Part shown: one piece after another, positions 2,845-39,967 of the stretch
How positions within the stretch are numbered: the first letter of the stretch is position 1
Layout: each line of letters opens with the position of its first letter
Source of the DNA: Escherichia coli
Lineage (GTDB): Bacteria > Pseudomonadota > Gammaproteobacteria > Enterobacterales > Enterobacteriaceae
Strand: one strand, 5' to 3'
Assembly: GCF_003790525.1 (NCBI RefSeq)
Contig: NZ_CP033635.1
Length of the DNA stretch: 64,000 nt
Made by a program: the position numbers and the translations under genes
Notes under the pieces: generated by a model
The model's database searches: none
The model's input: only the letters and a program-made list of their open reading frames with translations
Told to the model about the DNA's origin: nothing

Positions 2845-3512
2845 TGTTTGAGTATTTACCCGAACTGATGAAAGGGCTGCACACCAGCCTGACGCTAACC
2901 GTTGCCTCGCTGATTGTGGCACTGATTCTGGCATTGATTTTTACCATCATCCTGACGCTGAAAACGCCGGTGCTAGTGTGGCTGGTACGGGGCTATATCA
3001 CGCTGTTTACCGGTACGCCGCTGCTGGTGCAGATCTTCCTGATTTATTACGGACCGGGCCAGTTCCCGACGTTGCAGGAGTATCCGGCACTGTGGCATTT
3101 GTTGTCAGAACCGTGGTTATGTGCGCTGATTGCGTTGTCGCTGAACAGTGCGGCGTACACCACGCAGCTGTTTTACGGTGCGATTCGCGCGATCCCGGAA
3201 GGTCAATGGCAGTCCTGTAGCGCCCTGGGAATGAGCAAAAAAGATACGCTGGCGATCCTGCTGCCGTACGCGTTTAAACGCTCGCTCTCTTCTTATTCCA
3301 ACGAAGTGGTGCTGGTGTTCAAAAGTACTTCTCTGGCTTACACCATTACGCTGATGGAAGTGATGGGATACAGCCAGTTGTTGTACGGACGCACCTACGA
3401 TGTCATGGTGTTCGGTGCGGCAGGGATTATTTACCTGATTGTTAACGGTCTGCTGACGCTGATGATGCGTCTGATCGAGCGTAAAGCACTGGCGTTTGAG
3501 CGAAGGAATTAA
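2844..3512 (+). CDS. artM: Arginine ABC transporter permease
   Basis: 222 aa permease; start overlaps the artQ stop (ATGA-type coupling). Confidence 0.9.
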   Translation: MFEYLPELMKGLHTSLTLTVASLIVALILALIFTIILTLKTPVLVWLVRGYITLFTGTPLLVQIFLIYYGPGQFPTLQEYPALWHLLSEPWLCALIALSLNSAAYTTQLFYGAIRAIPEGQWQSCSALGMSKKDTLAILLPYAFKRSLSSYSNEVVLVFKSTSLAYTITLMEVMGYSQLLYGRTYDVMVFGAAGIIYLIVNGLLTLMMRLIERKALAFERRN

Positions 3513-34146: not shown

Positions 34147-35685
34147 TTATTGCAAATCTGCGTCTTCAAAGCTGAAGCCGGTGTCTGGCATGATCCAAAA
34201 ACCGGTCAGGTTTTTACTGTGTGCCGACACCAGTTTTTCTACCACCAGCGGGATCCACGGCGACTCTTGCCAGATGATATCCTGCGCCGCCTTATATAAA
34301 CGGGTCTTTTCCGCCGGATCATTAGTTTTTAGTGCCTGAGCCAGGAAGTCATCCACCTGTTTATTGCTGTAAAACGCGGTATTAAACAGCGTTGGTGGCC
34401 AGTTTTGCGAGGCAAACAGCGGCGATAGTGCCCAGTCAGCTTCGCCGGTTGAAGCCGACCAGCCAGTGTAGAACATCCGCACGCCGCTCTCTTTTTGCCC
34501 TTTACCTTCGACTTCTGCCGCCCGCTGTCCGGCATCCATCGCAGTCACCTGGGCTTTAATCCCGACCTGCGCTAACTGCTGCTGGGTAAATTGCAGCACT
34601 TTCTGCGCGGTGCTGTGGTTATGTGACGACCACAGCGTGGTACTGAAACCGTTGGGATATCCCGCCTCTTTCAGTAATTCGCGCGCTTTCACTGGATCGT
34701 AAGGCCACGGTTTATAACTTTGCGCATAGGCGATACTCGGCGGTACCACACCAGTAGCTGGCGTTGCATAGCCCGCGAAGGCCACTTTCACCAGCGCCGG
34801 GCGGTTAATGGCGTAATTCAGCGCCTCACGGACCTTCGGGTTATCGAACGGCTTTTGCGTCACGTTCATACTGATATAACGCTGCATAATTGACGGACTG
34901 GCCATCAACTCGATATTTTTGTTTTTCTCCAGCAATGCGGCCTGCTCGTAAGGAATGGGGAAAGCAAACTGCGCTTCACCGGTTTGTAGCATTGCCGCGC
35001 GGGTGTTGTTATCCGCAACCGGACGCCAGGTTATGCTGTCCAGTTTGGGCAATCCTGGCTGCCAGTAACCCGCGAATTTTTTCACCTTCACAAAATCGGT
35101 CTGATTCCAGGTATCCAGTTCATACGGCCCGGTTCCCACCGGATGAAAACCAATATCCTTGCCATATTTTTCCAGCGCTGCCGGCGAAATCATCGCGGTC
35201 GCCGGATGGGCAAGAATATTAATAAACGCTGAGAACGGCTGTTTGAGGGTAATCTTTACCGTTGTTGGATCGATCGCTTCCGTTTTGGCAATATTCTTAT
35301 ACAGGTTGTAGCGTTTAAGATGATTCGCCGGATCGCTGGCCCGGTCCAGATTCGCTTTTACCGCCGCTGCGTTGAAGTCGGTTCCATCCTGGAATTTAAT
35401 TCCTTCCCGCAGTTTCACGGTGTAAGTAAGGCCGTCATCGGAAACGGTATAACTCTCCGCCAGCACGTTTTTCAGTTTCATCTCTTTATCCAGACCGAAC
35501 AGCCCCTGGTAAAACGATTTCGCTACGGCCTGAGATAACGTGTCATTCGCGTCATATGGATCGAGCGTGGTGAAGTTCGATCCTACCGCCACCACCACAT
35601 CTTTGGCAGCGAATGCACAAGATGCCATCAACGCTGTCGCAATGCCCAGCGCCACTAACCCACTACGGTGTACAGCTCTTGCCAT
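34147..35685 (-). CDS. gsiB: Glutathione-binding periplasmic protein
   Basis: Start refined to [20 protein letters not shown] (signal peptide; 512 aa); the 89-codon upstream extension in the ORF track is not credited. Confidence 0.88.
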
Positions 35686-35704
35686 TTTATTCTCCGCCTG
35701 AATG

Positions 35705-37576
35705 TTATCTACGCATGAATGCGTATTCTGATTGTGGTTGTGCGACGTAATGCCCCGGCCCGACGCATTGCAACGAGACGGCTGCAACCTCTTCGCCACG
35801 CAGATGAATATTGCTGGGAAGATCGTCCGACAGCAGTACACGCTGCGGTCGTTGTCGGGACGGTTCAGCGACCGGAACTGCCGCCAGTAATTTACGCGTA
35901 TAAGGATGCTGCGGGTTTTCGAAGACCGCGCGCCGTGGACCAATTTCAACAATTTGCCCGAGATACATCACCGCCACACGATGACTAATCCGCTCTACCA
36001 CGGCCATATCGTGGGAGATAAACAGATACGCAATGCCGAAATCACGCTGGAGATCGAGCAACAAGTTGATAATCTGCCCGCGAATAGAAACATCCAGCGC
36101 CGAGACGGCTTCGTCGGCAATGATCACTTTTGGATTCAATGCCAACGCGCGAGCAATGCAGATGCGCTGGCGCTGACCGCCGGAAAACTCATGCGGGTAA
36201 CGCCAGGCATGTTCAGGTAACAGGCCCACGCGCTCCAGCAACCACGCAACACGTGCAGCCGCTTCTTTACCTGGCAATAAACCGTGTACGCGCAGCGGTT
36301 CGATAATCGAATCACCGATGGTCTGACGTGGGTCCAGCGAAGCGTAAGGGTCCTGAAAAATAAACTGAATATCGCGGCGCAATGCCTGAAGTTTACCGGA
36401 TGACAAGGTATCGATTCGCTGACCGTTAAAGATAATTTCGCCGCCCTGCGATTCGACCAGGCGCAGCAACGCCCGCCCGGTAGTGGATTTACCGCTGCCA
36501 GACTCGCCCACCAGCGATAGCGTTTCACCAGGCCAGAGATCAAAACTGACTTTCTCAACGGCATGCACTTCCCGCGTTACGCGATTCAACAAACCGCTGC
36601 GCAAAGGGAAACGGGTGACCAGATTACGCACCCGTAAAACAGGTTCGCCATCCACCACCGTTTTCTGCTCGATGGGTGGCTCCTGTTTCGCTGGATGTTC
36701 AAGCGATATCAACGGGAAACGTCGGGGATAATCTAACCCTTTCATCGCACCAAGTTGCGGAACAGCAGCTAACAGCGCACGGGTATAAGGATGTTGCGGT
36801 GCATGAAAAATCTGTTCGACGCTACCCGTTTCCACCGCCTCGCCCTGATACATCACCAGAACCCGATCGGCAATCTCTGCCACCACGCCCATATCGTGAG
36901 TGATAAAGATAACGCCCATCGACATCTCTTTTTGCAATACTTTGATTAATTGCAGGATCTGCGCCTGAATAGTGACATCCAGCGCGGTGGTTGGCTCATC
37001 GGCAATCAGCACCGCCGGGCAGCATGACAGCGCCATCGCAATCATCACTCGCTGGCGCATCCCGCCAGAGAGTTGATGCGGATAACGTGAAAGAATGGTT
37101 TGTGCCTCCGGAATGCGTACCTGATCCAGCATCCGCTTCGCCTCGACCATCGCTTCTTCACGACTGGCGTTCTGATGCAGACGAATTGATTCGGCAATCT
37201 GTTCACCCACAGTAAATACCGGGTTCAGCGATGTCATCGGTTCCTGAAATATCATCGCCATATCCGCACCGCGCACATGGCGCATTTGTGCAGCGCTCTG
37301 CTCGCTAAGTTCAATCACTTCGCGACTGCGCCGCCGCAACAGCATTTTATCGCACTGTACTAAACCGCCCGCCTGTTCCAACAGACGCATCAATGCCAGC
37401 GCAGTCACTGACTTACCGGAGCCGGATTCGCCAACAATTGCCAGCGTCTCACCGCGTTGCAGGCTAAAAGAGAGATTGCGGACCGCAGCTATTTTCTGCT
37501 GGTCCTGCATAAAGGCAATATTCAGATTTTCAACCGCCAGCACATCACCGGCATCAAGTTCATCACTGTGTGGCAA
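35705..37576 (-). CDS. gsiA: Glutathione ABC transporter ATP-binding protein (tandem ABC domains)
   Basis: Two Walker A (GESGSGKS) and two LSGG signature motifs; start assigned to TTG at 37576 (LPHSDELD) to give 623 aa; 14-nt overlap with the iaaA stop. Confidence 0.85.
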
Positions 37577-38528
37577 CGGTGTCCCCTTTTTCACGGTAGA
37601 TACCGGTGGTTGGCGTATCGCCTGCGTAGCCCCAGGCGCGATACATTCCTTCGGTGTTAAACGGTAGCGCGACGTTACCTTCATGGTCGATAGCGATTAA
37701 GCCACCGCTACCGCCAAGCGCAGGGAGTTTTTCCATTACTACCCGCTCGCAGGCTTCCGCGAGACTTAATCCGCCGTAATCCATTAACGCGGCGATGTCA
37801 TATGCCGCCAGCGCGCGGATGAAGACTTCGCCCGTGCCGGTACAAGAAACCGCCACACTGGCGTTATTGGCGTAGCATCCGGCACCCACTAAGGGACTAT
37901 CGCCAACTCGTCCGGGTAATTTATTGGTCATTCCGCCCGTGGACGTGGCTGCCGCCAGATTGCCGTCTAAATCCAACGCCACGGCCCCCACGGTGCCCAT
38001 TTTCTGTTTTTCATCCAGTGGCGCACCGCTATGGTCGAGGACTGTTGCCCCTTCCTCGCGCGCTGCCAGTAGTTGTTCATAACGCAAAGGCGTGGAGAAA
38101 ATCTCCGGTGAGACGCGCTCCATGCCATGAGCAAACGCAAAATTTTCTGCCCCTTCGCCAATCATCATCACATGCGGGCTTTGCTCCATCACCAGCCGGG
38201 CGGCAAGAACCGGATTACGCAGATGACTAACGCCCGCCACCGCACCGGCTTTCAGGGTGTTACCATCCATCACACAGGCGTCCAGTTCATGGGTTTCATC
38301 ACGCGTAAAGACAGCGCCAATTCCGGCGTTAAACAGTGGACACTCTTCCAGCAGACGCACCGCTTCCGTCACCACATCCAGCGCACTTTCGCCCGCTTCC
38401 AGCATTTTCTGCCCGGTTTCAACAATGGCAGACAGCGCCTCGATGTAGCGTAATTCCTGTTGCAGACTCATCTGCGCGCGGCTAATTGCACCTGCGCCGC
38501 CATGAATTGCAATGACTGCTTTGCCCAT
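37563..38528 (-). CDS. iaaA: Isoaspartyl dipeptidase / L-asparaginase (Ntn hydrolase)
   Basis: 321 aa; MGTVGAV autoprocessing-site region; synteny. Confidence 0.9.
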
Positions 38529-38731
38529 AGTATTCGTCCATTAAGGGTGGCTCGCCACTTTTGCTATAAATATCAGAATTTTTATGAATTACTCATTCAA
38601 TTTTTGAATATAGAAAGATGGATATGGCATGTAAAGGCAGGAGCCAGCGCTACGCCCGAGGTGGCATACAGTCTGTGGCGTTTTTCTGACATAATAGGCA
38701 AATTCGATTTTGCCTCCGCAGGAGTGTTTTC

Positions 38732-39967
38732 ATGGAATTTACCACCGGATTGATGTCGCTCGACACCGCGCTTAATGAGATGCTTTCTCGCGTTACCCCA
38801 CTGACCGCCCAGGAAACGCTGCCACTGGTTCAGTGTTTTGGTCGTATTCTGGCGAGCGATGTCGTTTCGCCACTGGATGTCCCGGGGTTTGATAACTCCG
38901 CTATGGACGGCTACGCGGTGCGTTTAGCCGATATTGCCTCCGGGCAACCGCTGCCCGTTGCCGGTAAATCCTTTGCCGGTCAGCCGTACCATGGTGAATG
39001 GCCTGCGGGTACCTGCATTCGTATTATGACCGGTGCGCCGGTGCCAGAAGGCTGCGAAGGGGTGGTGATGCAGGAGCAGACTGAACAAACGGACAATGGC
39101 GTGCGTTTTACTGCTGAAGTGCGTAGCGGGCAAAATATTCGCCGTCGCGGTGAAGATATCTCTGCAGGTGCGGTTGTTTTCCCGGCGGGGACTCGCCTGA
39201 CTACCGCTGAACTGCCAGTGATTGCTTCGCTAGGGATTGCCGAAGTTCCGGTGATTCGTAAAGTGCGTGTAGCGCTTTTTTCTACCGGTGATGAACTCCA
39301 GTTGCCCGGTCAGCCGCTGGGCGACGGCCAAATCTACGATACCAACCGTCTCGCCGTACACCTGATGTTAGAACAGTTGGGATGCGAGGTAATCAACTTA
39401 GGGATTATCCGCGACGATCCCCATGCCCTGCGCGCCGCATTTATTGAAGCCGACAGCCAGGCGGATGTGGTGATCAGTTCCGGCGGTGTTTCAGTGGGTG
39501 AAGCGGATTACACCAAAACCATTCTTGAAGAGCTGGGGGAGATCGCCTTCTGGAAGCTGGCGATTAAACCAGGTAAACCGTTCGCGTTCGGTAAACTCAG
39601 CAATAGCTGGTTCTGCGGCCTGCCGGGCAACCCGGTTTCAGCAACGCTGACCTTCTATCAACTGGTACAGCCTTTGCTGGCAAAACTAAGCGGCAATACC
39701 GCCAGCGGCCTGCCCGCGCGCCAGCGTGTGCGCACGGCATCGCCTCTGAAGAAATCGCCAGGACGCCTTGATTTCCAGCGCGGCGTGCTGCAACGCAACG
39801 CCGATGGCGAACTGGAAGTGACGACCACCGGACATCAGGGTTCACATATATTTAGCTCCTTTAGCCTCGGCAACTGCTTTATCGTGCTGGAACGCGATCG
39901 CGGCAATGTGGAAGTGGGCGAATGGGTGGAAGTAGAACCGTTTAACGCGTTGTTCGGAGGCCTGTAA
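38732..39967 (+). CDS. moeA: Molybdopterin molybdenumtransferase
   Basis: 411 aa; MoeA family. Confidence 0.92.

Follow-up and report, generated by a model that had tools for sequence, protein, structure and literature searches.

The window analysed here, a stretch of 64,000 nucleotides from Escherichia coli, carries on its minus strand an ordinary E. coli iaaA-gsiABCD operon. The gene iaaA (37563..38528, minus strand; 321 codons plus a TGA stop) encodes an isoaspartyl dipeptidase/beta-aspartyl peptidase and has the same extent as K-12 b0828. Its product differs from K-12 IaaA at three residues and scores 714 bits against the NCBIfam equivalog NF007589 (IaaA; cutoff 567), with residues 1–321 of 321 aligned. 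The next gene, gsiA (35705..37576, minus strand; 623 codons plus stop), encodes the ATP-binding subunit of a glutathione ABC transporter, with two fused ATPase domains. Against the NCBIfam equivalog NF007613 (GsiA; cutoff 1077), GsiA scores 1377 bits, protein residues 1–623 corresponding to profile positions 1–623 of 623. It shares 98.6% identity with K-12 GsiA, from which it differs at eight residues, N11D and R186C among them, and its start and stop are those of RefSeq b0829. No solved structure of GsiA showing the N-terminus was found, the nearest being those of mycobacterial Rv1281c, DppD and the E. coli Opp/Dpp ATPases.

Immediately downstream of gsiA, the starts and N-termini of gsiB, gsiC and gsiD were located at 35685, 34129 and 33206, respectively, and the gene order in the window is collinear with K-12 iaaA-gsiABCD. 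From established knowledge and the RefSeq layout, we take these genes to be transcribed as an operon. The operon is induced when sulfur is limiting or when glutathione is the sulfur source. A sigma-70-like match (38607..38635, minus strand; TTTACA, 17 nt, TATATT) lies upstream of iaaA and is a candidate operon promoter. It is the single promoter-like site in 37300–38800, where 0.7 would be expected by chance, and it is a match to the consensus only. The import of glutathione by GsiA is attributed to published K-12 work (Suzuki et al., 2005, as cited in PMC10355420).

The 3' end of iaaA, read on the minus strand, is ...TAC CGT GAA AAA GGG GAC ACC GTT GCC ACA CAG TGA, with the TGA stop at 37565-37563. 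In the gsiA frame, which is +1 relative to that of iaaA, the same region reads ...GTG AAA AAG GGG ACA CCG TTG CCA CAC AGT GAT GAA CTT GAT... The TTG in this reading (37574..37576, minus strand) is identified below as the initiation codon of gsiA, so that the two genes overlap by 14 nt (37563-37576, minus strand), from the TTG to the iaaA stop. Upstream of the TTG is a Shine-Dalgarno (SD) sequence, AAGGGG (37583..37588, minus strand), separated from it by a 6-nt spacer and situated within iaaA codons 314-315.

The gsiA initiation codon

A mechanical search for open reading frames places gsiA elsewhere. The ORF on the minus strand runs from 37684 to 35705 and encodes 659 aa, with an ATG as its first codon (37682..37684, minus strand), inside iaaA. 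The in-frame TTG at 37576-37574, followed by PHSDELDAG, lies 36 codons below this ATG (659 − 623 = 36), and the coordinates given for the ORF in the original prediction were confirmed. Two further in-frame start-type codons, both missing from that prediction, flank the TTG. One is a GTG 18 nt upstream (37592..37594, minus strand); the other is a GTG at 37543 (minus strand), 33 nt downstream, which was the start in the 2006 K-12 annotation (U00096.2).

The original prediction had proposed the TTG as initiator and, as one way of accounting for it, an ATG-to-TTG change relative to K-12. The second of these proposals fails. The start codon in K-12 had been set beforehand as the point of comparison, and MG1655 (NC_000913.3) has the same TTG, the 100 nt around which are identical to the window; any claim of novelty is thereby refuted. 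In MG1655, iaaA occupies 866568-867533 and gsiA 867520-869391, and the 14-nt overlap (867520-867533) is annotated, gsiA (b0829) being already given from the TTG in RefSeq. The b0828/b0829 junction also shares the AAGGGG SD and the iaaA TGA with the window, and the two sequences differ only by strain-level substitutions outside the junction. The overlap of gsiA onto the iaaA stop, also claimed at the outset and read here directly from the sequence, is thus that of the K-12 annotation. The annotation of strain 2012C-4502 has the same TTG start and the same 14-nt overlap. Both features are therefore already known, and have been in the reference annotation since its 2014 revision.

Nor is the TTG a peculiarity of a few strains. 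A 301-nt query covering the junction matches 5425 of 5426 complete E. coli genomes, with iaaA and gsiA annotated under every match listed. A native 37-mer centred on the TTG junction was designed such that any change at the TTG destroys the 28-nt seed required by megablast. It was matched in at least 5355 of the 5426 genomes, exactly in 5233, and the ATG and GTG versions of the same 37-mer gave no match among the 5426. The TTG is thus intact in at least 5355 of these genomes, and no ATG or GTG replaces it in an otherwise identical junction.

Of the candidate codons, the TTG has by far the strongest predicted pairing with the 3' end of 16S rRNA. The energy of the anti-SD duplex is −7.8 kcal/mol for the TTG, against −1.5 kcal/mol for the ATG at 37684 and −3.0 kcal/mol for the GTG at 37594. 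Related genera keep a purine-rich GGAG/GGGG element at the same spacing. For comparison, a scan with one genome per species yielded 80 gsiA loci, among which the Salmonella junction is not included. About 25 Enterobacterales loci have a start-type codon (TTG, GTG or ATG) at the position homologous to the TTG. It is TTG in Escherichia, E. albertii, three Citrobacter species, Superficieibacter and Pseudocitrobacter; GTG in Lelliottia, Enterobacter, Phytobacter, Kosakonia, Pluralibacter gergoviae and Siccibacter; and ATG in Leclercia, Cedecea, Pantoea, Mixta, Rahnella and Serratia. A strong SD is present in nearly all the genera compared, which are those whose GsiA N-terminus can be aligned; Rahnella is the clear exception. 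In-frame stops 9-15 nt ahead of the homologous start rule out any start further upstream in Lelliottia, Enterobacter MGH24, Enterobacter sp. Ag1, Cedecea and Siccibacter.

The phase of substitutions leads to the same codon. Here the window was set against K-12, a divergent E. coli, E. albertii and three Citrobacter. The 108 nt that precede the TTG contain 78 substitutions, 68 of them at codon position 2 of the gsiA frame (position 3 of iaaA), whereas beyond the TTG 62 of 108 are at gsiA codon position 3. These counts indicate that the TTG is where coding constraint passes from the frame of iaaA to that of gsiA.

These comparisons bear directly on a start at the ATG at 37684, which would give a protein of 659 residues, the first 36 of them read from an alternative frame of iaaA, with an overlap of 122 nt. 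The frame is open from this codon, ATG is the preferred start codon, and the same ATG is found in K-12 and Citrobacter. It lacks an SD (the −1.5 kcal/mol given above), however, and is predicted to lie in stable local structure (MFE −16.7 kcal/mol, probability of being unpaired 0.27). E. albertii lacks the ATG altogether, and in many relatives stops close the frame before the real start. The pattern of substitutions in the extension (68 of 78 at the second codon position) is accompanied by poor conservation of its residues, 18–21 of 36 being identical to Citrobacter as against 32–34 of 35 in the iaaA frame, and the GsiA family model NF007613 begins at the TTG and not at the ATG. A start at the ATG is already effectively refuted, and its probability is negligible; the codon is not a start codon. 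The 36-codon extension is an artefact, arising because the gsiA frame is open across the 3' end of iaaA.

Published data on initiation in K-12 were also considered. Nakahigashi et al. (2016) used tetracycline-inhibited ribosome profiling (TetRP) to map initiating ribosomes in K-12 (PMC4909307). Entry no. 8 of their Table S2 (yliA = gsiA) moves the start from its 2006 position to a TTG 33 nt farther upstream, where the read depths are 46, 140 and 71, as against 0, 0 and 3 at the GTG annotated in 2006. The TetRP start is also that of the 2014 re-annotation (U00096.3; 867520), and the table gives no second candidate for gsiA (PMC4909307). Ribosome profiling had been put forward at the outset as a check on the start, and these published data place initiating ribosomes at the TTG. 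The column for N-terminal peptides is blank for yliA/gsiA in the same table. The search extended ±60 nt from the 2006 start, a range that takes in the GTG at −18 and leaves out the ATG at −108 (PMC4909307), so it is the comparative evidence by itself that excludes the latter. Two other sources, the TRAINSPOTTER supplements (PMC13245402), which contain no gsiA entry, and Ribo-RET, which gave no peak at gsiA, add nothing to this; the missing Ribo-RET peak is probably due to low expression.

The two GTG codons could in principle serve as the start, alone or for a second proteoform, giving proteins of 629 aa (37594) or 612 aa (37543). Both are start-type codons in frame, and the GTG at +33, besides being the start in U00096.2, is conserved in many genera, yet it codes for the conserved Val of a VLxV strand. 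For neither GTG is the SD energy better than −3.0 kcal/mol, so that the GTG at −18, too, is without an SD; that codon is missing in L003, E. albertii and Citrobacter, and is not used. A start at +33 would cut off the conserved PHSDELD segment, and the TetRP reads there (0, 0 and 3, against 46–140 at the TTG, with no second candidate listed) also speak against it. Initiation at either GTG is accordingly very improbable.

There is very little doubt, then, that translation of gsiA starts at the TTG at 37576-37574, the same start as in K-12. On this codon, placed before PHSDELDAG as originally proposed, the K-12 annotation, the SD, the start-type codons of relatives, the phase of substitutions and the TetRP peak in K-12 all agree. 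The fuller explanation, which combines the TTG start with an SD inside iaaA, an overlap derived by loss of a stop codon and a putative coupling of the two genes, is given a probability of roughly 0.93.

Origin of the 14-nt overlap

The comparison of junctions shows how the overlap arose. In Leclercia, Lelliottia, Enterobacter, Phytobacter and Pseudocitrobacter the junction has the form cgtgaaTAAggggg, followed after 10-11 nt by ATG, GTG or TTG. Escherichia and Citrobacter have instead cgtgaaAAAggggacaccgTTG, which is collinear base for base with the cgtgaaTAAggggg form. The codon that differs is AAA (Lys314; 37587..37589, minus strand) of iaaA; at the homologous place, several related genera of the Enterobacteriaceae have the TAA stop of their iaaA. 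With AAA in place of TAA, iaaA reads on for eight codons (KGDTVATQ) to the TGA inside gsiA.

The distribution of the two forms points to the longer IaaA as the derived one. In every other genus examined, the C-terminus of IaaA is ...IYR or no more than a few residues away, as in ...GIYRE, and an ending of the ...IYR type also holds for the Enterobacterales outgroups and for Betaproteobacteria in which iaaA adjoins gsiA. The eight-residue tail KGDTVATQ is limited to the one clade of Escherichia and Citrobacter. Salmonella IaaA, which we take to be 313 aa long, would be of the short form. The iaaA stop of other lineages either overlaps the gsiA start by 1 or 4 nt (TGATG and ATGA types) or precedes it by 9-13 nt, and the stop-to-start spacing is between −14 and +13 nt in nearly all the Enterobacteriaceae loci examined. 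Leclercia, Lelliottia, Enterobacter, Phytobacter, Pseudocitrobacter and Cedecea share with the window the gene order, the position of the gsiA start and a strong SD. They differ in that most have a GTG or ATG start, and in that iaaA either ends eight codons earlier (TAA after ...GIYRE) or overlaps gsiA by 1-4 nt; where the window has a 14-nt overlap, these genera have a spacer of 9-13 nt or an overlap of the TGATG/ATGA type. On this comparison of sequences, the 14-nt overlap is a derived stop-loss of the Escherichia/Citrobacter lineage and not an ancient design.

Possible translational coupling of gsiA to iaaA

The arrangement suggests a mechanism by which translation of the two genes may be linked. 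The AAGGGG SD (37588-37583), inside the last codons of iaaA, directs initiation of gsiA at the TTG. The change of the iaaA stop from TAA to AAA in the Escherichia/Citrobacter lineage created the overlap. Ribosomes ending iaaA would then pass over the SD of gsiA and reach their stop 14 nt beyond the gsiA start, which makes some coupling probable, and part of the translation of gsiA could be tied to that of iaaA, through re-initiation or local unfolding. GsiA output would be held low by the weak TTG codon.

Coupling is common between genes of E. coli operons whose stop and start lie close together. Among translationally coupled pairs are trpB-trpA and trpE-trpD, in which the classic overlaps are 1 or 4 nt and coupling was shown by nonsense mutations. 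Like these pairs, iaaA and gsiA are on the same strand, with the start and SD of the downstream gene inside the coding sequence of the upstream gene and the stop near the start. Unlike them, iaaA-gsiA has a 14-nt overlap and a TTG start, and its coupling is putative. From what is known of closely spaced genes in operons, coupling of gsiA to iaaA is a plausible and reasonable reading. The location of the one promoter-like match ahead of iaaA, with none between it and gsiA, is compatible with this.

Whether coupling contributes materially to the translation of gsiA appears evenly balanced. The TTG start may be right and initiation nevertheless independent of iaaA, with ribosomes loading de novo on the SD and the overlap a neutral by-product of the stop-loss; this we consider a serious possibility, at somewhat short of an even chance. 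The SD is strong and correctly spaced. Related genera function with spacers of 9-13 nt and without an overlap, so the overlap is not required, and the restriction of the eight-residue IaaA tail to one clade is also consistent with independent initiation. Against this, stop and start are closely juxtaposed across the family, and pairs so placed in E. coli operons are, as already stated, commonly coupled.

Predicted RNA structure is on the side of independent initiation. Folding, comparison with shuffled sequences and a consensus fold built from seven Escherichia/Citrobacter sequences gave no significant occluding structure at the gsiA SD and TTG that translation of iaaA would open. The accessibility at the gsiA start is 0.57, similar to that at the starts of gsiB, gsiC and gsiD. 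A hairpin of CACCGGUAUCUACC with GGGGACACCGUUG (−9.3 kcal/mol) covers the SD and the TTG and is found in the consensus fold. It was rejected as a coupling device, as 29% of shuffles are as stable and it shows no compensatory pairs. A fold of 111 nt (z = −2.4) was likewise rejected: the consensus fold differs from it, its long-range helix is not conserved in Citrobacter and, again, there are no compensatory pairs.

Results in vitro lean the other way. When the isolated gsiA initiation region (−30 to +150) was assayed by INRI-seq, none of the five replicates showed an initiation peak, unlike gsiB, gsiC and gsiD, which gave signal (PMC9825163, Table S2). This zero signal counts against initiation independent of iaaA. 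About 30% of all genes are undetected in INRI-seq (PMC9825163), however, so the silence of gsiA is weak evidence for coupling. The silence of gsiA in Ribo-RET and INRI-seq is uninformative on the choice of start, and for coupling it is weakly suggestive.

A more speculative suggestion is that the change from TAA to AAA at Lys314 in Escherichia and Citrobacter was not neutral and may alter the link between GsiA and IaaA synthesis; we consider this unlikely. If true, termination of iaaA, formerly about 10 nt short of the TTG, would have shifted to a point 14 nt beyond it, and terminating ribosomes would cross both the SD and the start of gsiA. The stop-loss would also add a tail of eight residues to the IaaA beta subunit. 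Still more speculative is a +1 slip of tRNA-Lys from AAA to AAG on GAA-AAA-GGG, into the gsiA frame, by which a trace of an IaaA-GsiA fusion might be made.

Significance for annotation and for the Escherichia/Citrobacter lineage

For annotation, the finding matters little beyond hygiene. The frame is open inside iaaA, and a longest-ORF track consequently misplaces the start of gsiA by 36 codons; the curated TTG is right. To the existing annotation the present comparison adds, first, evidence that independently rules out the ATG at −108, a codon outside the published TetRP screen, and second, the presence of the TTG in no fewer than 5355 of the 5426 E. coli genomes. The third addition, and the sole mildly new point, concerns the biology of the group: the overlap of iaaA and gsiA originated by loss of the iaaA stop, and with it IaaA gained its eight-residue tail in Escherichia and Citrobacter.

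Reading frames and initiation in iaaA-gsiABCD

The longest-ORF track overextends gsiB, drawing it at 34147-35952 on the minus strand (601 aa) from a TTG within gsiA. The real gsiB encodes 512 aa from an ATG at 35685, with the N-terminus MARAVHRSG, and the over-extension is a longest-ORF artefact, as is that of gsiA to the upstream ATG at 37684. In vitro initiation profiling of K-12 (INRI-seq) called peaks for gsiB, gsiC and gsiD; none was called at the gsiA start (equivalent to 37576 here), with 0 in all five replicates, or at the iaaA start (equivalent to 38528), which was above threshold in only one of five (PMC9825163, Table S2). The iaaA start codon is ATG, and the SD-like sequence upstream of it is only weak.

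Within GsiA, residue 186 (about 37019-37021), immediately ahead of the first Walker B motif, is Cys. This position is Arg in K-12, strain 2012C-4502, E. albertii, Citrobacter, Leclercia, Lelliottia, Phytobacter and Superficieibacter, and His in one divergent E. coli.

The 3' end of iaaA

IaaA of E. coli and Citrobacter carries an eight-residue C-terminal tail, KGDTVATQ (37563-37589, minus strand). The loci compared were L003-L037 of a scan of one genome per species, around position 2960-3010 of each. In several related genera the iaaA stop TAA directly follows GIYRE, and in every genus examined other than Escherichia and Citrobacter IaaA ends at IYR or within a few residues of it. The tail originated in a change of the iaaA stop from TAA to AAA in E. 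coli and Citrobacter.

The site of this stop-loss reads GAA AAA GGG (37584-37592, minus strand), and its A5G run, which the gsiA frame divides as G AAA AAG, is similar to a dnaX-type slippery motif. On a speculative reading, tRNA-Lys could slip +1 off AAA onto AAG, which would shift ribosomes translating iaaA into the gsiA frame.

The iaaA-gsiA neighbourhood across genera

In L008, the gsiA locus of Enterobacter sp. BIGb0383, tblastn found no iaaA upstream of gsiA. The frame right ahead of the gsiA GTG start (2955-3000 of the locus) retains TGIYRQ and a stop, apparently a vestige of the C-terminal end of IaaA. The lack of a tblastn-detectable iaaA, together with this leftover, suggests that most of iaaA was deleted and the gsiA ribosome-binding region retained.

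Of the 80 loci that the scan returned, 66 have iaaA directly upstream of the gsiA homologue. Among them are Betaproteobacteria whose IaaA identity is only 55-62%; loci L038-L079 take in Achromobacter, Bordetella, Paraburkholderia, Variovorax, Cupriavidus, Xylophilus and others. Such deep conservation of gene order suggests a functional link, and more than co-regulation, between the isoaspartyl/beta-aspartyl peptidase and the peptide-type ABC importer.
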